A DNA stretch of 64,000 nucleotides from a virus (taxonomy: Duplodnaviria; Caudoviricetes), in the IMG/VR virus record IMGVR_UViG_3300022173_000064, positions 624 through 64,623 of that record, one strand, 5' to 3'. A program made the position numbers and the translations under genes. Below the pieces are notes generated by a model. It ran no database searches. It had not been told where the DNA came from and saw only the letters and a program-made list of their open reading frames with translations. This document shows positions 3,201 to 15,128 of the stretch, in pieces (the stretch's first letter is position 1; every line of letters starts with the position of its first letter).

Positions 3201-4188
3201 CGGATCGGGCTACAGCGCGGGCACCACGGCGACCGTGGTCGACGATAACGGGCTCGGACCCGGCACCGGCGCCGTGGCAAGCGTGACCGTGGTCGCCGGC
3301 GTCATCACCGCTATTACCTTCCCCACGCCCGGCGCTGGCTATGTCAGCCCTGAGTTGGTCATCACCGATCCGGCCGGCAGCGCTGGGGGCACCGGGGCCT
3401 CGGCGGACGTCGTATTGAGCAACGTCGCGACCTTTACGGCCAGCGCCAGCGTGTTCGTGGTCGGCGATATCGGGCGCGTCATCCGCATGGGCGGCGGGGT
3501 CGCCACGATTACCGCGCGCACCAGCGGGACCGTCGTCACCGGCCAGCTTACCAGTCCGATTCGGACCGTCATTCCGAACAGCGGCGGCACCGCGGCGCCG
3601 GCCGCGTCGGGCACATGGACATTGAGCACCCCGACGACCACCGTTAGCGGCCTGTGGCCCTTGGTCGGCGCCACCGTGACCGGCATTGCCGATGGTGTGG
3701 AGATCGATCCGCAGGTGGTTTCCGCCACCGGTACGATCACGCTGGACGTCGCAGCCAGCCAGATCATCGTCGGCATGGCGTTCCTGCCCCAATTGCAGAG
3801 CGTCTACCTCGATGCCGGCGAGCCGACCGTTCAAGGGCAGCGCAAGAAGATCGCCGAAGTGACGGCGCGCGTGCAGGCGTCAGGGGATTTCACGATCGGG
3901 TCGAACCAGCCGGACGGATCGGTGCAAAGCCCGATGCAGAACGCTCCTCGATGGCAGAATATGACGGACGCGCCGAACCCGGCCAAAAATCCCTACAACA
4001 GCCGGACCAAGCCCCTGTTCACCGGCGACATCCGCATTCCGGTCCAGGGCGGCTATCAGAAGCCAGGGCAGGTCGCGATCGAGCAGCCGCATCCGTACCC
4101 GCTGCAGATCCTTGCGTTTATTCCTGAGGTATTGTCGGGCGACAAGCCATCGCAGGCGGCGCCGGAGAAACGAGGTCGCAATGGCTGA
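247..4188 (+). CDS. Tail tubular protein B / nozzle (T7 gp12, P22 gp10-like) with FCCH-like and Gly/Thr-rich inserts
   Basis: N-terminal QTAFVTGEVSP and RGGAYSRAGT, central YPGVVAYFQQRRFY, C-terminal VNGWSRH, FESVC, QPHPYPLQIL motifs; precedes internal virion genes. True start may be ATC at 235. Confidence 0.85.
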   Translation: MIQTAFVTGEVSPALFGHVDLVRMHAAASTMRNLWPSYRGGAYSRAGTEFVGFSKQTGRAYPPRMIPFQFSINQGLALEFGNYYMRVIFDGGYVTEAPYIISGATQANPCVLTVTATSSLDSVTPINSAVSASYVQGDTISLAGGTFSTRAVVTVGQTLLSSVAINARGQGYNGGEIITLSGGSAVARASVQVVTTRVVAVDPVPKYVGAGGTPGAAVLTGTTGTGTKFQVNVTIGGLGNITAVGSIVAVGSYTANPSTGTFGASTDTMSGGGFGDPPILGLAMEIATISIVNPGQYLTNSATFTQFSTTGSGTGATFQTVIFGVYNATVTTAGNYTVLPTNPVAQFATSGTGAGVTLTASWLSSPTLSTGDWVYVDDVGGMTQLNGRTFVASVSGSNISLFDVYGNQINSSAYGAYTSGGTASRIYTLATQYSEVDLRWIKFTESADTMSLCCVNQSTGTEYPPVDLSRSSDTDWAFTPAVPVPSISPPTGTSLSASTQPASPTTDAGYSYVVTAIADDGTESIASNIGSLADVINIGSTAGTIYVSWSGSVGANEYFIYKATPSVNKSGSGTGIPSSGALFGYVGSAYGQTFFDTNIVPDFSQVPPLHRNPFARGQILAVRTTAGGSGYTSAPTVTINTFTGGGAVILPIVQSGAVVAYIVKDNGSNYAPTDTVTISGGGGASATATLTIGAQTGTYPGVVAYFQQRRFYAYTLNQPDTYFASQPGAFNNFDRRIPTIDSDAFDGTPWSVQVNGIQFMVPTSGGLVVLTGLEAYFLTGQGGSAFTPQPVTPSSQSAVPQGFNGCSATVPPIRIYQDVLYVQAKGSKYRDFAFNMNQNTYTGDDITENSAHLFDGHTIEEHAWCEEPYRLLWAVRSDGILLCDTWVKAEKVNGWSRHDTFGTFESVCSVTEPPVDALYCATQRLIGSNTAYVVERMNDRLWKTAEDPWCVDCGLSYAQDEPDATLVASSSTGLGSLTGVTNLVGGSGYSAGTTATVVDDNGLGPGTGAVASVTVVAGVITAITFPTPGAGYVSPELVITDPAGSAGGTGASADVVLSNVATFTASASVFVVGDIGRVIRMGGGVATITARTSGTVVTGQLTSPIRTVIPNSGGTAAPAASGTWTLSTPTTTVSGLWPLVGATVTGIADGVEIDPQVVSATGTITLDVAASQIIVGMAFLPQLQSVYLDAGEPTVQGQRKKIAEVTARVQASGDFTIGSNQPDGSVQSPMQNAPRWQNMTDAPNPAKNPYNSRTKPLFTGDIRIPVQGGYQKPGQVAIEQPHPYPLQILAFIPEVLSGDKPSQAAPEKRGRNG

Positions 4189-4654
4189 ATTCCGCGTCAT
4201 CGAAGCCCGGGAGCATCATTGCGGCGCCATCGTCCGGCGGCTGCGAGAGGGGCAACGCACCGCCCTGATCGGCCTTGGGGTCAACCCGCACCGGGAGATC
4301 AGGACGAATTTCGATACGTCGGCATTCCGGCGCGCGTGGATGGTCGACGGCCGGCTGGGGGCGCTGTTCGGGGTCACCGGACCTCTGCTGGCGGCGCGCG
4401 GCTATTGCTGGCTCGCCATGTCTCACGAGGGGACGAAATACCCCGTGGAGATTGTGAAAGAGACGCGACGGCAATTTGGCGCTATCATGCAGACGAAACG
4501 GGAGCTTTACACCACGCTTTTGCCGGAGGACGGGGCCGCGTTGCGATTTGCGGACTTTCTCGGGTTTGAGCAGGCGCACACGGCGCCGGTTCCCTATGGC
4601 ACGGGGCGTGTGATAGCGGTTCGTTATAGGCCGGATTTGGCGAGGGCAGCATAA
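4181..4654 (+). CDS. Putative GNAT-fold protein, T7 gp13-like
   Basis: ATG overlaps nozzle stop (ATGGCTGA); GALFGV..GYCWL and ALRFADFLGF motifs; position between nozzle and internal virion proteins. Confidence 0.6.
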   Translation: MAEFRVIEAREHHCGAIVRRLREGQRTALIGLGVNPHREIRTNFDTSAFRRAWMVDGRLGALFGVTGPLLAARGYCWLAMSHEGTKYPVEIVKETRRQFGAIMQTKRELYTTLLPEDGAALRFADFLGFEQAHTAPVPYGTGRVIAVRYRPDLARAA

Positions 4655-4656
4655 CC

Positions 4657-5229
4657 GTGGCATTCGTGGCAGCAGCATTGCCGGTTTTGAGCGCGATCGG
4701 CGCCGGCGTCGGCGCCGTGAGCACCGTCATGGGCGGCATTTCATCGCGCAACCAGGCGAACTACCAAGCGGAAATCGCCAAGAACAACCAGACCATCGCC
4801 ATCCAGAACGCCGCGCGCGCGGAGCAGGCAGGCAACGTGCAGGCCGAGGCGCAGGGCCGCAAGGGAGCCGCGCGGCTCGCCGGGATCAAGGTAGGGCAGG
4901 CGGCAAGCGGGATCGACGTGAACAAGGGAACGCCAGTCGACGTGCAGGCTGGGCAGCGCGAGATCAATCAGCTGGACACCGAGACGGTGCTGAGCAACGC
5001 CCAGCTCCATGCCTACGGCTACCGGACTCAGGCGATGAATTTCGAGGCCGAGGAGCGGGCGCAGCGATCCAAAGCGGACAATGCCGTCCCCGCGGCGCTG
5101 TTGAAGGCCGGCGGCGGCCTGCTCGCCAACGCATCATCGCTCAGCGGAAAGTGGACGACGGGAGGTGGATTCGGCGCCGATCAAAGCACGGAAGCCGAGG
5201 ATTTAGCCTCCGGCATCAGGCCGGTATGA
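4657..5229 (+). CDS. Internal virion (ejection) protein, T7 gp14-like
   Basis: Ala/Gly/Gln-rich helical protein with hydrophobic N-terminus and ASGIDVNKGTPVDV motif; synteny. Confidence 0.65.
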   Translation: MAFVAAALPVLSAIGAGVGAVSTVMGGISSRNQANYQAEIAKNNQTIAIQNAARAEQAGNVQAEAQGRKGAARLAGIKVGQAASGIDVNKGTPVDVQAGQREINQLDTETVLSNAQLHAYGYRTQAMNFEAEERAQRSKADNAVPAALLKAGGGLLANASSLSGKWTTGGGFGADQSTEAEDLASGIRPV

Positions 5230-5232
5230 TCC

Positions 5233-7683
5233 ATGGCGCAGAACGAATACACCGAGGGCGTCCCGACGGTTTCCCCGTCAACGGAGGGTGGCGCTTCGTA
5301 CCAGAGCGGACGCGGCGCGGACGCCGAGGCGTTCGGCGCGGGCCTCGCACATGGCGGCGAGCAGCTGGGCCAAGGCATGGTCACCGCTGGCAAGTTTTTC
5401 GGCAAGGTAGCCGCCGACGACGCCAGTAACCAGTTCCAGGACTTTGCGTCGAAACTGCTCCATGGCGACCCGAACCGGATGTCCAAGGGGCCCGACGGGA
5501 CCGACGTTCCGGATACCGGGTATCTCGGGCTCAAGGGCCGCGCCGCGCTGGATCAGCGCCCGGCGGTGCAAAAACAGATCGACGATCGGATCAAGGAATT
5601 ACGCTCCGGGCTGCAGACGCCCGAGCAACAGCTGGAATTCGACAATTTCTCCCGGCGGTATCGAACCGGCGTGGTCGAGCGGGTGGGAAACCATGCCGAC
5701 CAGCAATCCACAGGCTGGTATGCCTCGGTCAACACCGCGACTGCCAAACTGGCGATGGATCACATCTCGAACAATTGGGACAAACCGAACGAGGTCGCGG
5801 CCGGCGCGGCTGATCTCACCGCGGCTTATGTCCGAAATGCCCAGATCAAGGGCGGCAGCGAACTCGAAATCCGCCAGGCCATGAACGATGCGCGGCGGGA
5901 CGCGCTCGGGGCGCAGCTGGACGCGATGGCGGTCAAGGATCCGGCGCGCGCAATGAGTGTGCTGGATAAAAACCGGGATATCGCCGGGGTAAAATACGAC
6001 GAAATGTCGAATAAGTTCCGCACGCGCGCCGAGCAGCAGCAAGGCATCGGTGCGGGCCTCGAGGCGATCAAAAGGACATACCAGCCGGGGCTGGGGCAAA
6101 AGACGGTCTACACAGAGGTCCAACTTTCTACCGCGGGAGCACCCTATGGGATTTCCGGCTCCTATCTGTCACGGGTGCATGCGCTCGAGGGTGACGGGGT
6201 GAGCCCGACCGGCGCCAAGGGACCGTTCCAGTTCGTCGATTCCACCGCAAAGCAGTACGGCCTCAAAGACCCGTTCAATCCGGAGGAAGCGGCCGCCGCC
6301 GCCGCGCGTCTGGCGGCAGACAACAAGGCCGGCCTGACGCGGCAACTCGGCCGCGCGCCGACGGACGCCGAGCTCTATCTGGCGCATCAGCAGGGCGCCG
6401 GCGGCGCGGCCGCGCTGCTCTCAAACCCCACCATGACGGCTCAACAAGCGCTGATGACGCTGCCGAGATATGCCAACGATCCCGCGGCGGCAGCTCGAGC
6501 AATCCGGGTAAATGGCGGCGACCCGGAAGCGTCGGCGGCGCAGTTCGCCAACATGTGGACGACGAAGTTCAACGGCGCGCCGGGGATGGCGACCGCGCAA
6601 CGGCGGGCGAGCGCACTGCAGGCGGTGCTGGAAAACCCCAACCTGACGCCGCAGGCGCAGGCGCACGCCATTACCTACGTCAACCAGCAGATGGCGGCAC
6701 AAAAGATCGCCATGGAGGAGGACGACAAGGCCAAGAAAACAGCAAACGATCAGGTCCAGGCGGAACTCACGCGCCAGATCATCGCCGGCAACGACCCTAA
6801 TATCATCGGGAAGATTGCCAATTCCGGGCTCGGCGCCACCGAGATCCAGAACCTCTATAATTTTGCCACGAGCCGCGGCGGGGTGCAGGATGACTTGCAA
6901 TATGGACCCGGATACCCGCAGGCGTTCAAGGCCATCTTGGCGCCGGATAACGACCCCTCGAAAATCACCGACGTAGCGTCGATTATCGCGCGCGGCGGGC
7001 CCGGCGGCGATCTGAGCAAGCGCGGCGTCGCCGAACTCGTCAACGCCCTGACCGCGATCAGGAAGCAGCCGGATCAGGCCGGCGTCTCCATGGTGAAGTC
7101 GAAGCAGCTTGAATATTACCTCGGCCAGTTCTCGCCAGAGCCGGAATACAAGGGCATGCCCCGCAACCAGAAGGGGCTCGACCGGTACAATCGCGAGTTC
7201 ATTCCGGCCTTTGAATCGGCCTATGCCCAATGGATCAAGGCCGGAAAGGATCCGATCGCATTCTTGCAGGACACGAAGCAGATGGACGCGATCGCAAATC
7301 GCATCTATCCGCCCGATCAACGGCGCATGGACATGCTGTTTTCCAGCGGTGCCGCGCCAACCGCGCCGCCGGTGCCGCCGCCGCCCGCTCCAGCCGGCGT
7401 CGATCAGAAGGCGTGGGACCGGTTCATGGTCGCGCCGCCGAACAGCGCGGCCGGAAAGCCGTGGACGACCGAAAATTGGGCGAAGGCGATTGAGAAATTG
7501 CGAGCCAATCCGTCCGAGGACATGAAAAAGGCGTTCGACAAGCATTTTGGCCCGAGCGGCTATACCGCCAAGGACATTTTGAGTAGGCTCCCGCCGTCGA
7601 ATGCCGTGAAGCGTCCGAACGTCGTGGCTGCACCGCCCTTTGCGCCCAATGCCGAAAGGGCTGAGGTTGGGATTAGTCAATAA
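5233..7683 (+). CDS. Internal virion protein with lytic transglycosylase-like domain
   Basis: YLSRVHALEG..GAKGPFQFVDSTAKQYGL..ELYLAHQQGAGGAAALL (about 6150-6430) is an SLT/lysozyme-like signature inside a helical ejection protein. Confidence 0.75.
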   Translation: MAQNEYTEGVPTVSPSTEGGASYQSGRGADAEAFGAGLAHGGEQLGQGMVTAGKFFGKVAADDASNQFQDFASKLLHGDPNRMSKGPDGTDVPDTGYLGLKGRAALDQRPAVQKQIDDRIKELRSGLQTPEQQLEFDNFSRRYRTGVVERVGNHADQQSTGWYASVNTATAKLAMDHISNNWDKPNEVAAGAADLTAAYVRNAQIKGGSELEIRQAMNDARRDALGAQLDAMAVKDPARAMSVLDKNRDIAGVKYDEMSNKFRTRAEQQQGIGAGLEAIKRTYQPGLGQKTVYTEVQLSTAGAPYGISGSYLSRVHALEGDGVSPTGAKGPFQFVDSTAKQYGLKDPFNPEEAAAAAARLAADNKAGLTRQLGRAPTDAELYLAHQQGAGGAAALLSNPTMTAQQALMTLPRYANDPAAAARAIRVNGGDPEASAAQFANMWTTKFNGAPGMATAQRRASALQAVLENPNLTPQAQAHAITYVNQQMAAQKIAMEEDDKAKKTANDQVQAELTRQIIAGNDPNIIGKIANSGLGATEIQNLYNFATSRGGVQDDLQYGPGYPQAFKAILAPDNDPSKITDVASIIARGGPGGDLSKRGVAELVNALTAIRKQPDQAGVSMVKSKQLEYYLGQFSPEPEYKGMPRNQKGLDRYNREFIPAFESAYAQWIKAGKDPIAFLQDTKQMDAIANRIYPPDQRRMDMLFSSGAAPTAPPVPPPPAPAGVDQKAWDRFMVAPPNSAAGKPWTTENWAKAIEKLRANPSEDMKKAFDKHFGPSGYTAKDILSRLPPSNAVKRPNVVAAPPFAPNAERAEVGISQ

Positions 7684-10600
7684 TGGACGACGGGGCCCTG
7701 CTTCCTACCGAAGATCCATTTGCCGACCTTGATCCGGAGCGCGCAGCCGCGCCAGCACCCACTGCGCCGGCCGGTAAGCCCCAGGTGCCGATCTCGCTGC
7801 CGGATGGCGTCGTGGCGCCGGTGGCCAACGATAACGAGCAGGGTAACCCTTTCGCCGAGTTCGGCGACGTCGGGCTGAGCGAAACGACCGCCAAGGGGGC
7901 ATTCGCCCGCGGCGCCGAGCGCGCGGCTCTCCCGGCGGCCGCCAGCCTCGTTGGTGCCGGCGCTGGCGCGGCGGGTGTGGTGGCGGGCGCGGCGGCTCTG
8001 GGGACGACCATCGGCCCATGGGGAACCGTCGGCGGCGCGATCGTCGGCGGCCTGGCTGCGGGCTATGGCGGGCAGGTAGCGCAAAGCTGGGTTTTGTCCA
8101 AATTGCCGGATTCGTGGGTCGATACCCTCGGGCTGGATGACCGGATGCAGCGGCTGGACGAGGCACAGCACGGCACCGCGTCGTTCCTTGGCGGTCTGGT
8201 CCCGTACACCTTGGCCATGCGCCCCGGCTCACAGCCTCTTATTGCGCTGCCAGAAAACGCTACCGCGATGCAGCGGGTGATGTCGAACAAGGCCACATCG
8301 GCCGTGTTCGGCGGCGCCATCAACGGCGGCATGGAACTCGGGCAGGAATACATCCAGGGCGAGGTCGACTGGCAAAAGGTCGGCATCGCGACCGCATTCG
8401 GGATGGTGTGGAACCAGCCGACGAAGTTCGGCCAGGCGCTGACATCGGTCGGAGAGCGGCCATTCCGCGCCCCGACTGTCCGGGCGCCAACCGTGGCCGA
8501 GGCCGGCGATCTCAAGGTGATGGGCCCGGGCGTCACGGAATCGGTGTTTCAGGGCACACAGGAGCAGGCCCCGAGCGCTGCGATGACAGCGCAGGAAACC
8601 GCGCGCGCCGAACGGATGGCGCTTGGTGAGACGCCGGAGCCCGATCTGCACGGCATCGCGCGGCAGATGGAGCCGGAATTATTCGCGGCCTATGACGACT
8701 TGCAGCGCCAGCGGGACACCTTTGCGGCGTGGCACGGCGAGGGCGGCGGTCATCCGGCCACAGAGGCGCACCTGGCTGCGACCGACGCGCAACTCAGGGA
8801 ATTGTCGCCGGAGATCGCGGCGGCGTACCGGCGGGCCGAGGAGACGCTGGGCCCGGTCGTCGACGAGCCAGCGCCGTTCCGGTCCTTTGCCGAGATGCTG
8901 GCGGCGCGAGAGAATGAAACAGGGAGGCCACCCGATGCAGGACAAATCCAAGCGCCGCAAGAAACCGCACCCGGCGGAGGACCGGGCATTCCGGATGGCG
9001 GTAAAATACCAAATCCCGTCGTCGGCGCTGGATCAGTTGCGGATGCTGGCGTTCCTGGCCCTCAACGAACCATTGGTGAACAACGGGCGAGTATCGCCAA
9101 CGATGTTGCAGAAAAGCTGATCGCGGCCGGCCGGCCGGAGGACGAGGCGCGCGCGGCTGGGCAGTTGGTTGCGGCGCGGTATGTCACCAGGGCCAGCCGG
9201 TTCGAGGGCAAACTTGGCACGCCCGAGGAGCTTTATGCGCGGGAAGGTGCCGCGATCGCGGGCCCGGAAGGTCGCCCGCGGCCGCCAGCGCAGGTCATCA
9301 GGGAGGTCGCGGCGCGCGGCGCGCAACAGAACGAGGCCGCACGCGCGGCGGACACTGCGGCGGTCGAGACAGCCGCGAAACCCCATGAGCCCGGCCTGAT
9401 CTCGCAGGACTTCGACACGTCCGATCGGATCAAAAACGAGTGGCGCAAGGCTGCGACGTTCACCGAGACGGAACCGTTTGTTGCTGCGTCGTGGCACAAC
9501 CAGCGGGCGCTCGGAGGGGTTGGAGATCAGATCGCCGCCGCGGTCGGCGTCGAATTCAAAAATCCCGGCATCAAGGCGCGGTCGACCGAGGATATCGCCA
9601 CGATCAAGGACGAGGGAAAGCGCAAACTGGCCGAGGCCAGCCGGCGCCGATTGGAAACCAAGGCCAAAAAGCACGGCATCGGCGGCGTCACGGACCAGGT
9701 TCGCGGCGGGTTCGACGTCCAGACGCCGGCCCAGGCCGACCAGGTAATTGCCGAACTGTCGAAGCATTTTCCTGTGGTCGACGAGGGTTGGCAAACCACG
9801 GCTGCGGGGTATTTCGACCGAAAGGCTTATGTCCGGTTCCCGGACGGCATGATCGGCGAGGTGCAGATTTGGCCGCCCGGCATGTTCCCGGTCAAGGATC
9901 GCGCGCACGGGCTTTATGAGGGCGTGCGGGAATTGCCGTCGTGGCACCCGATGGTGCCGCAGATCAACAAATCAGCCGCAGAGGTTTACGCCCCCGTGCG
10001 TGCCGCGCTCTCGGACGAGTGGAAGGCGGTTTTGGGCAGCGGCGGCAGCGAGCCGAACCGCTTGCCGAACGCGCCGGCCGAAAGCACCACGGCATCCGAG
10101 GCGTCTGCGGCATTGACCTCGGACCATTTTCCGCCGGAAAGCACCCAAGCCTCCGAGGGCGTCCAGAAACAGGGTTCGCCGTCCAGCGAACAGGATTTAA
10201 CTTCTGACATGTTTGGGACTCCTGCTGAGAATGTAGGGCCTCACGCCGAACCTGTCAACTCCGCGATTGACGCCGCCGACAAGATTAACTCGCTTTCGCC
10301 GGGAGAGCAAAAGCGAGAATTGCCGAAATACACAGCGACCGCAGAGCAGCCCGCAGGCGTCGACCAGCCGGCCGGCGTGTTCATGTTCGATCCGACCGCG
10401 ATCAACGTCGACGCCAAGCGATTCCAGTTCAAGAGCGGCGGCGACGAATACGGGGTGACGGGGGCGCTGCGGAGCGTCACCAAATGGAATCCGGCGAAAG
10501 CGCAGGCAATCATCGTCTGGGAGCAGACCGACGGCAAATTGTTCGTGGCCGACGGCCATCAGCGCGCGGGCCTGGCGCGGCGCCTGACCGAGCAGGGCAA

Positions 10601-13600
10601 AGCCAAGGGCATCGAATTGCCGGGCATCCTGTACCGGGAAAAGGACGGGGTTTCGGCGGACGATATCCGCGCCATCGCCGCGGTGACGAACATTGCGAAC
10701 GGGTCCGGGTCGGCGATCGACGGCGCCAAGGTGCTGCGGGCGCGGCCGGACCTGATGGATGGTTCCCTGCCGTTGTCGGTCGGCAAGGGCAAGCAGGCTG
10801 CGGCGCTGGCGCGGCTGGGCGATGAACCGTTCAAAATGGTGGTGAACGACGTCGTTCCCGAGCATTACGGGGCCGTGGTCGGGGAATTGATCCCGAACGA
10901 CCCGGCGCGGCAAGAGGCGGCGATCAAGGCCATCGCCCGGTTCGAGCCGAAGAATGCCGACGAGGCAGCGGTGCTGACCCAGCGGGTTGCGCAGGCCGAA
11001 CTCGCCAAGGCCGAGGAGGGCGCGCAGGGGTCGATGTTCGGCGACCTCGAGACGGTGGAATCGACCGCCGGCGAGGAGATGAAGATCGTCGGCCGGGCGA
11101 TCGCGGACCTGAAAAAGGACAAGGGGCTATTCCGCCGCGTTCTGGCGAATGCCGAGCGGATTGAGCAGACCGGTTCACAGATTGAGCGCGGCGCGGCGGA
11201 ATCCATCGCTTCGGACGCGGAAGTGTTTGCTAAAACGCTATCTTCGGATGCATATTCTGCGGGACCGATCCGGGACGAACTTGTTACCGCTGCAAGGGAT
11301 CTGAAAAATGGAAAATCCAGCCTCGCCGACGCTTCGGAGAGAATTGTCGCTGCCCTCCGGACCCAGGTTGAAGCGCATGGCCTTAATCGGCCTCGGGATA
11401 TCGGAGGCGTTGAACCGCAAGCCGCAAAAGAGTTCGCGCAAAACAAAACCGTCGCAGAACTCGAATCCGAATACCACCGCGCCCAAGAAGTAACGCGCGA
11501 AGCTTATCAGGTCGACGAGCCCAACCCCGACACGAAGGCGGCCGCACTGGCTGCCGAGAAGGCCGCGCGCGAGGCGTGGCTTTCTGCCTCTCGCAGCGAT
11601 TCGCTGTTCGAGCCCGGCGCCGAGGGCAAACCCCAACAACTGATCCCCGGCGTCGCGCCAGTCACGCAGCGCGACCTGATCCAAGCCGCAGCGAACAAGC
11701 CGCTCAAGCCCCGCGTCGCACAGAAAGATGCCGGCGGCCTGTTCGGCGATTCGATGGATCAGAAAGAACTGTTCCAGATCGCCCGCGGCAAGATCACCAT
11801 CTCCCCGAACAAGCGGCCGATCATCCGCCTGCTCAAGGATGCAAATGCCAGTACTTTTGTCCACGAATCTGGGCATCAGTACCTTGAGGAGATGATGCGC
11901 GACGTGGCGCACAAGGACGCGCCGGACGTCATCAAGAAGGACGCCAAGACGGTCCGCGACTGGTTCGGGATCGGCGCCGACGACGAGATCAAGACCAAGC
12001 ACCATGAGAAATTCGCCCGCGGTTTCGAGCAATACATCCGGGAGGGTGTCGCACCGTCGAAGGAACTGGCGGGCGTGTTTTCCAAGTTCCGGGACTGGCT
12101 GCTTTCGATCTACCAGAGCATTCGCGGCCTCGGGCAGGAGATCAACCCGGACATCCGCGCCGTGTTCGATCGGCTGCTGGAAATGGAGCCGCAGCGAACC
12201 GTGGTTGCGCGGCCGCAGGACCAGCCGTCGCTCCTGCACGATATCCATGAGGCGGAAGCCCGCACCATCGAACCGCACGAGGCCGAGCCGGCAATGGACC
12301 GCGTTCTGGCCGAGCATCAGCGTTATACGACCGAATTCCCGCCGGAGGTCTCCCGTGAGCTCGAAACCGCAAGAGCCGAAATCCAAGCCGAAGATGCTAT
12401 CGCTGCCGGAGAAGGTGGCGCTGGCGGAATCGGAGTTCAACCTGTGGAGCCGGGTGGCAGCCCGCCCGGGGCTCAGCCCGAAGGCGGCGCTGGCGGCGCG
12501 GAACGCGGCCCGGTCAAGCCGAGCGGCGATGCAACTCGGGCAGAAGGCGTTAAGCCTGTCACCGACCGCCGATCCGGCCTTGGCGACCATGCTTCAACCG
12601 CCCTTGCACCCGGGCCTGCAGACCTCTTTGGCCCCAGAGAGTCCCAGTTCACCGACCGAGCCGGGAACATCCGCATAGAGAACCTGACCACGAATGACGA
12701 CGTTGCGCAGGCGATCCGGGATTCGGCGGCGGAGAACAACGATTTCATCGGGGACCGCCGCGGCGTCATTACCGACGGCCAGGTGGTGGAGTTGGCGGAC
12801 GCGCTCGGGATGGACGCCGCGAAGTTGAACCAGCGCCATGTCGGGCAGGCGTTTAACGCCGAGCAGATCGTGGCGGCGCGCAAGTTGCTGATCGAATCGG
12901 CGACAGATGTCTCCGCGGCGATGCGCCGGGCCGCCACGGGCACGGACGAGGACGTCATGGCCTATGCACAGGCCAAGGACCGTCATCAGATGATCCAGGC
13001 GCAGGTGTCCGGGATCACTGCGGAAGCCGGCCGCGCTCTCCGCGCATTCCGCTCGCTGGCCGGGCAGGAAGCCGCAAAGGGCGTCGACCAATTCATCCGC
13101 GAGGCGACAGGCAAAACCCTGTTCCAGCTTCGCCAGGAGGCCCAGCTTGGGCTCTCGCTCGAAACCCCGCAGCAGGTGTCCAAATTCATGATGGACGCCC
13201 AGAACCGGTCCTTTGGCCGGATGGTGTTCGAATTCTGGATCAATTCCATCCTGTCCGGCCCGTCAACGCACGCCACGAACATCATCGGCAACGCCATTTT
13301 GGCGGCGCAGCATTTCGGACCTGAGACGGCGATCGCCGCGCTGCTCGGCCGCGTGCGAAGCGGGATGGGACGCGAGGGGCAGACGGTGCGGTTCGGCGAG
13401 ATCGGCGCAGCGGTCCGGGGCGCGCGCAGCGGCATGGCGCCGGCGCTCATGGCGACTGGCGAGGCGGCCAAAAAGGGCGCCGCGGTGCTCCTGCCGGGCG
13501 AGAAGGTTCACGTCCCGATGGATGTGCAGCCCCACGATGCGCTGGCGATGCGCGGGACGCTGGACGAGGCCGCCAAATACTCGGACCTGGTTCAAGGTAC

Positions 13601-15128
13601 GTTCGGAGCCATGCAGGGGCTCAAGGACGCCATGCTATCGGTTGGCGTGCTGCTCAAGGGCGGCGTCGAGGGATCCCCGCTGATCGGGACGCAGTTTTCG
13701 CACCTTGGGGCCATCCCGGATATTCAGGTGCGAGGCGTCACCGTGGCGCCGATCGGAACAATTGTTCGCGCGCCCGGGCGATTTCTCGCGACTGCCGACT
13801 CGTTTTTCCGCTCGCTCAACTATTCGATGGCAAAGAACGCGCTTGCTTACCGCACTGCGGCGGGTGAGGGGCTGCGCGGGACCGAGTTCGACGCGCGCGT
13901 GGCGGAACTGCGGAGCAGCCCGCCCGAGGCTATGATGGAGGAGGCGCGCGGCGTGGCCGTGTCCGCCACGCTCATGAGCCGCGGCGGTCAATTCGTGCAG
14001 GCTATGAACCGCCTGACATCGGCGACGGTGGACCTCCCGCTGGCCGGCGAGATTGCGCCCCTTAAATTCGTGGCCCCGTTCGTCAACATCGCGGGGCAAA
14101 TCCTCAACCAGTCGATCATCCAGCGCAGCCCAGTCGGACTGCTCTCCAAGGAACTCCGGGCCGATCTGGCTGGCAAGAATGGCTCCGTCGCGCAGGACAT
14201 GGCGACGGCACGCATGCTGCTCGGGACGGCGATCACGGTCGGCGTCGGCATGCTGGCCGCGGAGGGGTTCGCCACGGGCTCGGGGCCGAAAAAGCCTGAG
14301 GAAAATTCGATGTGGCGGATGGCCGGCAACCAGGCGCACAGCGTCCGGATCGGCTCCCTCTGGTACAAGGTGGACAAGCTGGGTCCGCTCGGCTTGCTGA
14401 TGGGCATGGCCGCGGACCTTTACGAGGTTTCGCAGAAGGCATCCGCCGGCGAATACACCAAGGCCGCGGCCTTCCTGCATCACGCATTCGTGCAGAACAT
14501 CCTCGATCAGTCGTTCATGAAGGGGCCGGCCGACCTGATCCAAGCCGTCAGTGACCCCGACCGGTACGGCGAGCGCTATATCCGCAATTTCCTCTCCAGC
14601 TATGTCCCGAACGTCCTGGCGCAGCACGCGCGGCGGGAGGATCCATATATGCGGGAAACGCGGACGGTGATCGACGCGATGAAGGCGCGCATCCCCGGCG
14701 TTTCCGAATCGCTTGCGCCAAAGATCGACATTTGGGGCGAGCCGATGCCGAACCAGGAAGCACTCGGCGGCAAGGGTGTTACCGGCATCTATGTGAAGAA
14801 GATGAACGACGACCCCGTGAACAAGGCGATGCTCGCCTTGGGCGTTACCCCGGGAGCGGTCGAGAAGAAGATTCGCGGCTTTGAGCTCTCGCCAGAGCAA
14901 TACGAGTTTTACGCCCGCACAGCCGGCCGCATGACCAAGATGCGGCTCGATACGATCGTCAAATCCCCGGATTTTGAACGGTGGCCGCGCGAGGCCAAGG
15001 TGAGCGTGATCCAGGAGGTTATCAACGGCTGCCGTGAGACGGCCCGCGGCGCCACCATGGCGAAGTGGCCGAACATCCCGCGCGACGCCGCCGATCTGAA
15101 ACTGAAAAAACTGAGGGGCGAAAAATGA
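7683..15128 (+). CDS. Giant polyvalent ejection protein (RelA/SpoT-like, ParB-like, zincin-like HExxH domains; gp16/LPD38-like C-terminus)
   Basis: 2481 aa; DQVRG..GYFD..GEVQIW..HGLYE (about 9490-9975); VADGHQR (about 10540-10565); STFVHESGH..HEKFARGFEQY (about 11850-12040); helical C-terminal region ending ..PKIDIWGEP..; last gene of ejectosome cluster. Confidence 0.85.
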   Translation: MDDGALLPTEDPFADLDPERAAAPAPTAPAGKPQVPISLPDGVVAPVANDNEQGNPFAEFGDVGLSETTAKGAFARGAERAALPAAASLVGAGAGAAGVVAGAAALGTTIGPWGTVGGAIVGGLAAGYGGQVAQSWVLSKLPDSWVDTLGLDDRMQRLDEAQHGTASFLGGLVPYTLAMRPGSQPLIALPENATAMQRVMSNKATSAVFGGAINGGMELGQEYIQGEVDWQKVGIATAFGMVWNQPTKFGQALTSVGERPFRAPTVRAPTVAEAGDLKVMGPGVTESVFQGTQEQAPSAAMTAQETARAERMALGETPEPDLHGIARQMEPELFAAYDDLQRQRDTFAAWHGEGGGHPATEAHLAATDAQLRELSPEIAAAYRRAEETLGPVVDEPAPFRSFAEMLAARENETGRPPDAGQIQAPQETAPGGGPGIPDGGKIPNPVVGAGSVADAGVPGPQRTIGEQRASIANDVAEKLIAAGRPEDEARAAGQLVAARYVTRASRFEGKLGTPEELYAREGAAIAGPEGRPRPPAQVIREVAARGAQQNEAARAADTAAVETAAKPHEPGLISQDFDTSDRIKNEWRKAATFTETEPFVAASWHNQRALGGVGDQIAAAVGVEFKNPGIKARSTEDIATIKDEGKRKLAEASRRRLETKAKKHGIGGVTDQVRGGFDVQTPAQADQVIAELSKHFPVVDEGWQTTAAGYFDRKAYVRFPDGMIGEVQIWPPGMFPVKDRAHGLYEGVRELPSWHPMVPQINKSAAEVYAPVRAALSDEWKAVLGSGGSEPNRLPNAPAESTTASEASAALTSDHFPPESTQASEGVQKQGSPSSEQDLTSDMFGTPAENVGPHAEPVNSAIDAADKINSLSPGEQKRELPKYTATAEQPAGVDQPAGVFMFDPTAINVDAKRFQFKSGGDEYGVTGALRSVTKWNPAKAQAIIVWEQTDGKLFVADGHQRAGLARRLTEQGKAKGIELPGILYREKDGVSADDIRAIAAVTNIANGSGSAIDGAKVLRARPDLMDGSLPLSVGKGKQAAALARLGDEPFKMVVNDVVPEHYGAVVGELIPNDPARQEAAIKAIARFEPKNADEAAVLTQRVAQAELAKAEEGAQGSMFGDLETVESTAGEEMKIVGRAIADLKKDKGLFRRVLANAERIEQTGSQIERGAAESIASDAEVFAKTLSSDAYSAGPIRDELVTAARDLKNGKSSLADASERIVAALRTQVEAHGLNRPRDIGGVEPQAAKEFAQNKTVAELESEYHRAQEVTREAYQVDEPNPDTKAAALAAEKAAREAWLSASRSDSLFEPGAEGKPQQLIPGVAPVTQRDLIQAAANKPLKPRVAQKDAGGLFGDSMDQKELFQIARGKITISPNKRPIIRLLKDANASTFVHESGHQYLEEMMRDVAHKDAPDVIKKDAKTVRDWFGIGADDEIKTKHHEKFARGFEQYIREGVAPSKELAGVFSKFRDWLLSIYQSIRGLGQEINPDIRAVFDRLLEMEPQRTVVARPQDQPSLLHDIHEAEARTIEPHEAEPAMDRVLAEHQRYTTEFPPEVSRELETARAEIQAEDAIAAGEGGAGGIGVQPVEPGGSPPGAQPEGGAGGAERGPVKPSGDATRAEGVKPVTDRRSGLGDHASTALAPGPADLFGPRESQFTDRAGNIRIENLTTNDDVAQAIRDSAAENNDFIGDRRGVITDGQVVELADALGMDAAKLNQRHVGQAFNAEQIVAARKLLIESATDVSAAMRRAATGTDEDVMAYAQAKDRHQMIQAQVSGITAEAGRALRAFRSLAGQEAAKGVDQFIREATGKTLFQLRQEAQLGLSLETPQQVSKFMMDAQNRSFGRMVFEFWINSILSGPSTHATNIIGNAILAAQHFGPETAIAALLGRVRSGMGREGQTVRFGEIGAAVRGARSGMAPALMATGEAAKKGAAVLLPGEKVHVPMDVQPHDALAMRGTLDEAAKYSDLVQGTFGAMQGLKDAMLSVGVLLKGGVEGSPLIGTQFSHLGAIPDIQVRGVTVAPIGTIVRAPGRFLATADSFFRSLNYSMAKNALAYRTAAGEGLRGTEFDARVAELRSSPPEAMMEEARGVAVSATLMSRGGQFVQAMNRLTSATVDLPLAGEIAPLKFVAPFVNIAGQILNQSIIQRSPVGLLSKELRADLAGKNGSVAQDMATARMLLGTAITVGVGMLAAEGFATGSGPKKPEENSMWRMAGNQAHSVRIGSLWYKVDKLGPLGLLMGMAADLYEVSQKASAGEYTKAAAFLHHAFVQNILDQSFMKGPADLIQAVSDPDRYGERYIRNFLSSYVPNVLAQHARREDPYMRETRTVIDAMKARIPGVSESLAPKIDIWGEPMPNQEALGGKGVTGIYVKKMNDDPVNKAMLALGVTPGAVEKKIRGFELSPEQYEFYARTAGRMTKMRLDTIVKSPDFERWPREAKVSVIQEVINGCRETARGATMAKWPNIPRDAADLKLKKLRGEK
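8935..9120 (+). CDS. Nested +1-frame small ORF (61 aa) in giant gene
   Basis: SD AGGGAGG at 8921-8927; MQDKSKRRKKPHPAEDRAFRMAVKYQIPSSALDQLRMLAFLALNEPLV..; most codons end in G/C in this frame. Confidence 0.45.
   Translation: MQDKSKRRKKPHPAEDRAFRMAVKYQIPSSALDQLRMLAFLALNEPLVNNGRVSPTMLQKS
9986..10210 (-). CDS. Nested antisense gene (74 aa), candidate antitoxin for the RelA/SpoT-like domain
   Basis: SD AGGAG 8 nt upstream of ATG; own TTGACA-N17-TACATT promoter; W/F/C-containing globular-looking product where the sense frame is an S/T/A/P/E linker. Confidence 0.65.
   Translation of the reverse strand: MSEVKSCSLDGEPCFWTPSEAWVLSGGKWSEVNAADASDAVVLSAGAFGKRFGSLPPLPKTAFHSSESAARTGA
10230..10258 (-). 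promoter_or_regulatory. Sigma70-type promoter TTGACA-N17-TACATT for antisense gene
   Basis: Minus strand GTTGACAGGTTCGGCGTGAGGCCCTACATT; resembles the early promoter at 26863-26891. Confidence 0.65.
11308..11493 (+). CDS. Possible nested +1-frame small ORF (61 aa)
   Basis: AGGGA about 9 nt upstream; RLKRMALIGLGISEALN segment; lies in an atypical-codon stretch of the giant gene. Confidence 0.3.
   Translation: MENPASPTLRRELSLPSGPRLKRMALIGLGISEALNRKPQKSSRKTKPSQNSNPNTTAPKK
12394..12678 (+). CDS. Nested +1-frame ORF (94 aa) in giant gene
   Basis: MLSLPEKVALAESEFNLWSRVAARPGLSPKAALAARNAARSSRAAMQLGQKAL; about 27 of the first 30 codons end in G/C, while the main frame is a G/P linker with A/T-ending codons. 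Weak SD. Confidence 0.45.
   Translation: MLSLPEKVALAESEFNLWSRVAARPGLSPKAALAARNAARSSRAAMQLGQKALSLSPTADPALATMLQPPLHPGLQTSLAPESPSSPTEPGTSA

Follow-up and report, generated by a model that had tools for sequence, protein, structure and literature searches.

RelA/SpoT homologue (RSH) toxins delivered by type VI secretion systems (T6SS), toxin–antitoxin modules or MuF proteins are an active field of study, in which the role of the phage-borne copies during infection is open (PMC10083569, PMC12226406). The (p)ppApp synthetases Apk1 (Tas1) and Apk2 are toxic, and small immunity proteins neutralise them by binding; Apk2, a MuF-RSH toxin, makes (p)ppApp and is neutralised by IapK and Aph1 (PMC10083569, PMC12226406). 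The products of the Apk1-like branch vary, being (p)ppApp only for Apk1 and Apk2, both alarmones for SaEAS, and (p)ppGpp only for VpEAS and AaEAS (PMC12691689). In addition, RelA/SpoT domains have been listed together with DdrB-ParB among the phage-type polyvalent domains, and an alarmone-like response at entry has been predicted (Iyer 2017; PMC5512222). The RSH domain described here lies in a viral genome, IMG/VR record IMGVR_UViG_3300022173_000064, of which positions 624 to 64,623 were analysed. This stretch of 64,000 nucleotides (nt), referred to as the window, is nearly the whole 64,623-bp record, the completeness of which is 100% according to CheckV. The domain is enclosed in an open reading frame (ORF) of 2481 amino acids (aa), and its end is overlapped by a 74-aa ORF on the opposite strand; of all features of the locus, this nested antisense gene was the least expected. 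The elements concerned are:

7683–15128, plus strand: giant 2481-aa polyvalent protein at the position of gp16 / internal virion protein D, a predicted ejection protein (PHROG and tblastn matches)
9459–10007, plus strand: predicted Tas1/Apk-like RSH synthetase (pyrophosphokinase) domain, residues ~593–775 (family profile, AlphaFold model, Foldseek, VIA-align)
9693–9704, plus strand: syn2-type D671-Q-V-R674, with a predicted Mg2+-binding Asp and ATP-binding Arg (hidden Markov model (HMM) alignment)
9807–9824, plus strand: syn3-type putative acceptor loop G-Y710-F-D-R-K, with a stacking Tyr and a family-specific invariant Asp-Arg (family alignment)
9858–9866, plus strand: syn4-type E726-V-Q728, with a predicted catalytic Glu and Gln (family and HMM alignment)
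9986–10210, minus strand: 74-aa antisense ORF nested in the giant gene, a candidate immunity protein or inhibitor
10219–10258, minus strand: sigma70-like promoter TTGACA-N17-TACATT (10258–10230) and Shine–Dalgarno sequence AGGAG (10223–10219), upstream of the antisense ATG

We regard it as probable that the locus encodes a catalytically competent pyrophosphokinase of the Tas1/Apk1-EAS branch, carried in a giant polyvalent ejection protein of the gp16 type and injected with it, and that the antisense protein inhibits this enzyme.

Curated models proved blind to the domain, and its recognition therefore needed a family profile and a structure model. NCBIfam models and a single-sequence search of the PDB returned nothing for it, and a tblastn search with the domain gave no match in 50,697 deposited phage genomes. 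When residues 573–789 were searched with HMMER against 1.84 billion representatives (E ≤ 1e-3), 598 protein clusters were matched, in which the domain is mostly an internal block of proteins of 500–5000 aa. This conserved family block (9399–10049, 217 aa) is wider than the fold core, which was delimited by the alignment to Tas1 (model residues 21–203, window 9459–10007). An initial annotation, made from the sequence alone, had placed a RelA/SpoT-like domain at 9490–9975; its location was correct, while the fold core extends slightly further on both sides.

The profile used to search the PDB was built from an alignment of 38 diverse members and matched only two families, Tas1/Apk1 (6ox6_A, E 2.1e-19) and SaEAS (8vx3, E 9e-7). 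Similarly, the AlphaFold model of the domain (predicted local distance difference test (pLDDT) 94.5, predicted template modelling score 0.89) was matched by Foldseek with a probability of 1.00 to 8vx3, 6ox6, SAS1, RelP, RelQ, Rel and SpoT, the first two being the top matches. In VIA-align the best match was Tas1, with a Z of 14.6 (root-mean-square deviation 2.7, 160 residues), followed by SaEAS (13.7), SAS1, RelQ and RelP (~13), CapRel (11.3), the long Rel, SpoT and RelA enzymes (8–10), and finally FaRel and FaRel2 (~6.5). The lead of Tas1 is small, with SaEAS and the small alarmone synthetases (SAS) within ~1.5 Z. The SYNTH fold, a pol-beta-type nucleotidyltransferase sheet with flanking helices, is present in the predicted model (Z 14.6–12.5 over ~160 residues). 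On profile and model, the assignment as an RSH synthetase is secure, and the RelA/SpoT-like identity first proposed from motifs is borne out by the Tas1 profile match and by a confident model with Tas1, SaEAS and small alarmone synthetases as its best PDB matches.

The catalytic motifs named in the initial annotation, DQVRG (9693–9707), GYFD (9807–9818), EVQI (9858–9869) and HGLYE (9906–9920), are all in the frame of the 2481-aa ORF and coincide with the conserved columns of the family, far above chance. In the 38-member alignment, R674, Y710, D712, R713, E726, K738 and Y745 are invariant and D671 and Q728 nearly so (alignment numbering D99 = D671, R102 = R674, Y138 = Y710, D140 = D712, R141 = R713, E154 = E726, Q156 = Q728, K166 = K738, Y173 = Y745). 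D671 aligns with the position of the D121A substitution in the SaEAS crystal variant and R674 with SaEAS R124 and Apk1 R330, and in the HMM alignment the D671-Q-V-R674 stretch pairs with the DLAR motif of Tas1. E726 and Q728 align with E182 and Q184 of SaEAS and with E382 and the Gln of Apk1; in the family this syn4 motif reads E-V-Q-x-W. The conserved active site of SaEAS comprises the D121, R124, E182 and Q184 positions (PMC12691689), and FaRel2 is inactivated by mutating the equivalents of the Asp (D90G) and the Tyr (bioRxiv 2021.04.30.441581). Judged by these alignments, the domain retains the full RSH set of catalytic residues, i.e. the Mg-binding Asp, the Arg, the stacking Tyr and the Glu-x-Gln, in the same layout as Tas1.

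The acceptor loop, by contrast, sets the family apart from the characterised enzymes. GYFDRK aligns to GYSGVN in Tas1 and GYKGLN in SaEAS, and syn3 reads GY-GxN in the adenosine pyrophosphokinases (Apk) and SxH in the (p)ppGpp synthetases (PMC12226406). With its invariant Asp-Arg, GYFDRK represents a third acceptor signature, unlike those of the Apk and the (p)ppGpp enzymes. Leaving the product between an alarmone and a modified tRNA, as had been done at first, was right in this respect: the nearest relatives are nucleotide pyrophosphokinases, and the acceptor signature is unlike that of characterised enzymes. A purine nucleotide is the most likely acceptor, with the CCA end of tRNA as the main alternative. 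A tRNA-directed toxin of the kind of FaRel2, PhRel2 or CapRel is nevertheless unlikely, since the profile matched nothing in the PDB but Tas1 and SaEAS, both nucleotide pyrophosphokinases, and Z values of 13–14.6 for Tas1, SaEAS and the SAS enzymes stand against 11.3 for CapRel and 6.4–6.6 for FaRel and FaRel2. What keeps the idea alive, beside the aberrant loop and a CapRel score that is still considerable, is that tRNA is the target of most toxSAS subfamilies and that no sequence signature separates the nucleotide-directed enzymes from them (bioRxiv 2021.04.30.441581).

The 74-aa antisense ORF overlaps ~7 residues at the end of the RSH fold core (~21 of the family block) as well as the S/T/P-rich linker. 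It is open and 62–95% identical in four relatives, and remains recognisable (35–44% identity) opposite RSH genes that are themselves only ~37% identical to that of the window. The comparison covered 85 related loci, 80 of them from IMG/VR, and the census of partner ORFs 86 loci. In HMM searches of six-frame translations, the subfamily to which the window ORF belongs adjoins the end of the RSH domain in 53–55 of the 86 loci, typically at −39 to +45 nt, and is antisense in all loci but one. The other 32 loci carry a second subfamily of 66 aa in the same place and on the same strand. An alignment of the two subfamilies over their full length (hhalign probability 58%, E 1e-4) is only suggestive of a relation between them. 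With both subfamilies counted, a small ORF of ~65–90 aa abuts the RSH domain in 85 of the 86 loci, and is antisense in nearly all.

The small ORF also occurs in arrangements other than the nested one. In six loci (L011, L018–L020, L026 and L006) the RSH ORF ends right after the domain, and the module is there a free-standing convergent gene of 65–78 aa. The RSH gene is followed by the module on the same strand in L068 and in L087, the latter from a Mesorhizobium chromosome; the L087 copy is annotated as a hypothetical protein. Orphan modules of 86 aa (L088–L090), with no RSH gene within 4 kb, are found near a pair of genes for an HTH_3 repressor and an M78 peptidase, on at least 24 contigs. 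Finally, four tandem modules lie in a 537-aa ORF of L028 (4863–6476, minus strand), opposite which the plus frames are broken, and L034, L035 and L054 (~4772–6370) carry two modules in separate convergent proteins. These tandem-module proteins consist of a unique N-terminal region of ~110 aa followed by 2–4 modules, and look like multi-specific immunity proteins.

Signals for expression accompany the ORF. A GGAG or GAGG lies 4–16 nt before the ATG in 32 of 42 unique copies, compared to 4.4% of 2142 background antisense ATGs (p ~5e-35), and in the window AGGAG sits 8 nt from the antisense ATG. Promoter-like motifs precede 18 of the 42 module genes and 2.4% of background windows; both hexamers of the window promoter are kept in six related loci, while their flanks vary. 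The length of the small ORF stays at 65–88 aa across loci that are just 20–40% identical. In close pairs, the difference rates at codon positions 1, 2 and 3 are 0.193, 0.157 and 0.493 for the antisense frame of the overlap, and 0.221, 0.145 and 0.437 for the sense frame of the RSH domain. The sense frame of the overlap therefore has position 1 below position 2, the reverse of what is seen in the RSH domain, and it is the antisense frame that bears the codon constraint where the two genes overlap. The possibility that the ORF is a shadow frame of GC-rich DNA was considered and rejected on account of the free-standing, same-strand and array forms, the ATG with its Shine–Dalgarno sequence, and the antisense codon constraint. 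Three database proteins are most like the antisense ORF of the window; in the two contexts inspected, they were called at the end of a contig that truncates the sense gene. By these comparative criteria, the antisense ORF is well supported as a real, conserved protein-coding gene, rather than a shadow frame.

The predicted fold of the small protein has four strands and two short helices (pLDDT 78.7). It has no sequence match in Pfam or the PDB, haemoglobin rows at E > 0.05 being chance, and no significant match in Foldseek or VIA-align, the best Z being 3.4. Tis1, the ~75-aa partner of Tas1, reached a Z of 2.1 and was among 24 of 48,161 chains with Z ≥ 2, which is suggestive and not evidence. 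By analogy, the small ORF most likely encodes the cognate immunity protein of the RSH domain. This role is proposed because Tis1 and IapK provide a parallel and because the genetics, with orphan and arrayed copies, are of the toxin–immunity type.

Large internal capsid proteins such as T7 gp16 and the N4 virion RNA polymerase leave the virion before or together with the DNA and carry enzyme domains along. The giant ORF of the window occupies, by gene order and homology, the gp16 position among the predicted ejection proteins, as follows from the upstream genes and from the matches of its last third:

4112–7683, plus strand: upstream putative ejection-protein genes, encoding two small internal virion proteins and a protein of 816 aa that includes a transglycosylase region (phrog_308, phrog_418, phrog_4067 and others)
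12570–15125, plus strand: gp16-like internal virion protein D region, residues ~1630–2481 (phrog_6651; tblastn)

A gene for a 1313-aa tail protein is followed by the two small internal virion proteins, the 816-aa protein and then the giant ORF, and in tblastn residues ~1630–2450 of the giant protein match genes of many T7-like phages that are annotated as internal virion protein D. The proposal that the domain sits inside an ejection protein is thereby strengthened, as both gene order and the homology of residues ~1630–2480 to T7-type internal virion protein D agree with it. An ortholog (P0002) is 58% identical to the giant protein over its full length. The remaining genome encodes a T7-type portal, a GP7-type capsid protein, DnaB helicase, RecT, an exonuclease and a methyltransferase, and the phage is a complete 64.6-kb podovirus-like genome with a T7-like virion module. 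Among 90 ORFs of the genome scanned with Pfam, none matched an HD hydrolase, a known immunity family, an RNA polymerase or an integrase, and no lysogeny module beyond one helix–turn–helix (HTH) protein was detected.

Compared to Tas1, the P. aeruginosa (Pseudomonas aeruginosa) T6SS PAAR effector (PDB 6OX6) that gave the best profile and structure match, the window holds a similar pair, a toxin domain likely to be delivered and a small partner. The two differ in that Tas1 is delivered by the PAAR spike of the T6SS and the window domain would be delivered by a phage ejection protein; the Tis1 gene lies downstream of that of Tas1, whereas the window partner is antisense and embedded, with no significant similarity to Tis1. 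The resemblance to Apk2 lies in a phage RSH toxin fused to a virion protein and thought to be co-injected, with a small partner of the binding type (PMC10083569; PMC12226406; Bartoli 2023). However, Apk2 is a MuF fusion, while the window protein is a 2481-aa fusion of the gp16 type that lacks MuF; the HD hydrolase Aph1 of Apk2 systems has no counterpart found by Pfam in the window genome; and the immunity candidate belongs to another family than IapK and lies on the opposite strand, and the syn3 signature also differs. The EAS enzymes (SaEAS 8VX3, VpEAS, AaEAS), members of the Apk1-like branch with modular delivery domains, gave the second-best profile and fold match; they are secreted via Sec, the type VII or type III secretion system or extracellular contractile injection systems, and phage ejection proteins are absent from their listed delivery domains (PMC12691689). 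The giant protein would resemble the polyvalent proteins in combining RelA/SpoT, a DdrB-like ParB and a possible metallopeptidase-type module in one polypeptide delivered with the DNA; the RSH acquisitions described there are from Spirochaete and epsilon-proteobacterial (pro)phages and MuF fusions, in contrast to the gp16-type protein of the window, and neither gp16 or internal virion proteins nor an antisense partner gene are mentioned (PMC5512222). With respect to T7 itself, the C-terminal part of the window protein is homologous to gp16-type proteins, though gp16 carries the transglycosylase, which in the window phage lies in the preceding 816-aa protein, with RSH in the gp16-type one.

The kind of protein is hence already known, because RSH domains have been described in phage polyvalent (Iyer 2017) and MuF (Apk2) proteins; the initial annotation had rightly pointed to the former. 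The clade of 598 clusters is, on the other hand, new and unannotated. No RelA/SpoT name was seen on its members in the few source annotations available, and four homologue accessions and two family names were absent from the supplementary lists of Apk1 homologues in PMC12691689, which is a weak indication, as identifiers may differ. What is new here is the unannotated clade, the GYFDRK acceptor signature and the abutting, mostly antisense small ORF. Among the relatives, precomputed Pfam domains include portal (PF06381), Phage_Mu_F, ddrB-ParB (PF18763), ADP-ribosyltransferase (ART), Hint and tail lysozyme. Phage_Mu_F occurs in some homologues (P0031), while the window protein has no Pfam match to MuF, and fusion with the gp16-like region is limited to close relatives. 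A stand-alone RSH version of 283 aa lies behind the portal gene in a bacterial prophage remnant (L006). In another contig (P0053), a gene for a NUDIX hydrolase (3294–3941) was observed directly upstream of a stand-alone RSH gene of the same family (4001–4780); by analogy to Aph1, this hydrolase may be a product-degrading immunity enzyme.

In the proposed mechanism, a few copies of the giant protein would be packaged in the capsid and, by analogy with gp16, enter the cell with the DNA, where the domain would refold. It would then move pyrophosphate from ATP onto the 3'-OH of a purine nucleotide, yielding (p)ppApp and/or (p)ppGpp, and the ATP drain together with the alarmone could briefly shut down host transcription, metabolism or defence. 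The 74-aa protein, made from its own promoter and ribosome-binding site, would bind and block the domain as Tis1 and IapK do the Apk enzymes. Such inhibition may switch the toxin off after entry, shield the producing cell during assembly or guard lysogens against related phages, and convergent overlapping transcription could separate late synthesis of the toxin from early (or lysogenic) synthesis of the inhibitor. Delivery during entry, like any consequence for the infected cell, is inferred here, as it was when first put forward.

Several observations count against this mechanism. Pfam RelA_SpoT (PF04607), the HMM check originally suggested, did not match the whole protein (E ≤ 1), the isolated domain (E ≤ 10) or the six-frame translated genome, and the GYFDRK loop has neither the GxN of Apk nor the SxH of (p)ppGpp synthetases, so that another acceptor is conceivable. 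The window copy further carries a 16-residue insertion (9585–9632, residues ~635–650) in the helix after the PGxK motif (PGIK), which is modelled as a confident helix and is absent from the ortholog and the other family members. In an 86%-identical relative (L001, 4462–12416) the giant gene is split into ORFs of 598, 228, 135, 1011 and 647 aa, with one frame break inside the RSH domain; this split could reflect sequencing frameshifts, decay or cargo exchange. A (p)ppApp hydrolase (HD_4) was not found in the genome by Pfam scan and six-frame search, and neither fold nor sequence links the small protein significantly with Tis1 or with other known immunity proteins. Finally, a very fast ATP-draining enzyme in the phage's own host could harm phage replication unless tightly limited.

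Alternatively, the domain and the small ORF may be a polymorphic-toxin/immunity cassette that serves mainly in conflict between phages or between lysogens, by killing or excluding cells without the immunity protein or by shielding lysogens from relatives, and not for takeover of the phage's own host. This explanation, which we consider improbable, draws on the modular, shuffled architectures (portal, MuF and ParB fusions), on L001, in which an ART-PolyVal domain (PF18760) in the 1011-aa ORF takes the place of some of the ParB-like region without loss of the HExxH block, and on the orphan modules beside prophage repressor/M78 pairs and the multi-module array proteins; the same question is open in the literature on MuF toxins (PMC10083569). 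Homologues of the carrier protein are needed for DNA ejection, however, and the domain would therefore necessarily enter every infected host, and the Pfam scan detected no integrase or lysogeny module other than the HTH protein. A reading in which the RSH domain has no activity and serves only as structure or spacer, and in which the antisense ORF is a shadow frame without a product, is very improbable, even though long antisense ORFs are common in GC-rich genes (the giant gene holds several of 300–500 aa), the closest database proteins sit at contig ends with the sense gene cut, and frame breaks run through the L001 domain, since the catalytic residues are invariant across 38 diverse sequences and the small ORF keeps its ATG, Shine–Dalgarno sequence and length across highly diverged loci, is also present where it is overlapped by no sense ORF and where it shares its strand with an annotated gene, forms four tandem copies opposite broken plus frames, and bears position-2 constraint in its antisense frame.

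Within the favoured explanation of an injected pyrophosphokinase with an antisense-encoded inhibitor, a more specific version has in our estimation an even chance of being correct. A complete toxin–immunity cassette would have been absorbed into the ejection-protein gene, with the ~70-aa immunity protein a functional nested antisense gene with its own promoter, and the sense linker its back-translation. If so, the opposed transcription would act as a timer, in that the toxin is injected and the immunity protein then made from the entering DNA, and lysogens and relatives would be immune to injected RSH toxins, an immunity extended by the multi-module array proteins.

Outside the RSH domain and the gp16-like region, two further blocks of the giant protein were delimited:

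10365–11432, plus strand: ParB-like (DdrB-ParB type) domain with an ADGHQR motif, residues ~895–1250 (phrog_10691)
11691–12362, plus strand: conserved module with an HExxH motif (HESGH), residues ~1337–1560 (phrog_9880, E 2e-53)

The domain blocks of the giant protein are separable and are found as solo genes elsewhere. In 60 of the 85 related loci the ParB-like block and the RSH domain are encoded in one ORF, in either order, which suggests a functional pairing of two nucleotide-directed effectors. Pfam models of polyvalent proteins, including ddrB-ParB, did not match the window protein. The HExxH module is a stand-alone gene in T7-like phages of Pseudomonas and Xanthomonas; it had no Pfam match, and PDB sequence searches with it and with the ParB-like block gave chance matches only. 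From its motif, it is possibly a metallopeptidase, which might release the individual units of the polyprotein by cleavage, a role suggested before for polyvalent proteins. Short [DS]-[LM]-F-[GE] motifs, read by eye, recur at the borders of the blocks (residues ~850, 1110, 1295, 1352 and 1640) and could be processing or docking sites. Two ORFs overprinted in the +1 frame were also observed. One of 94 aa (12394–12678) is open and 55–66% identical in L001 and L002, where the sense frame is itself conserved; the other, of 61 aa (8935–9120), is partial (39 aa) in L001, has no counterpart in L002 and is probably not a gene.

The analysis exposes a clade of RSH domains that is missed by the Pfam RelA_SpoT and NCBIfam models. 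As the domain is part of a protein that would have to enter every infected cell, the idea of an injected alarmone synthetase is directly testable. The locus further provides a well-supported case of a conserved, protein-coding antisense gene nested in an ORF of a bacterial virus. If this gene encodes an inhibitor, it would represent a new immunity family and a new mode of packaging a toxin together with its immunity protein. Nested antisense genes of this kind bear on annotation, as such ORFs are systematically missed, and on superinfection exclusion.

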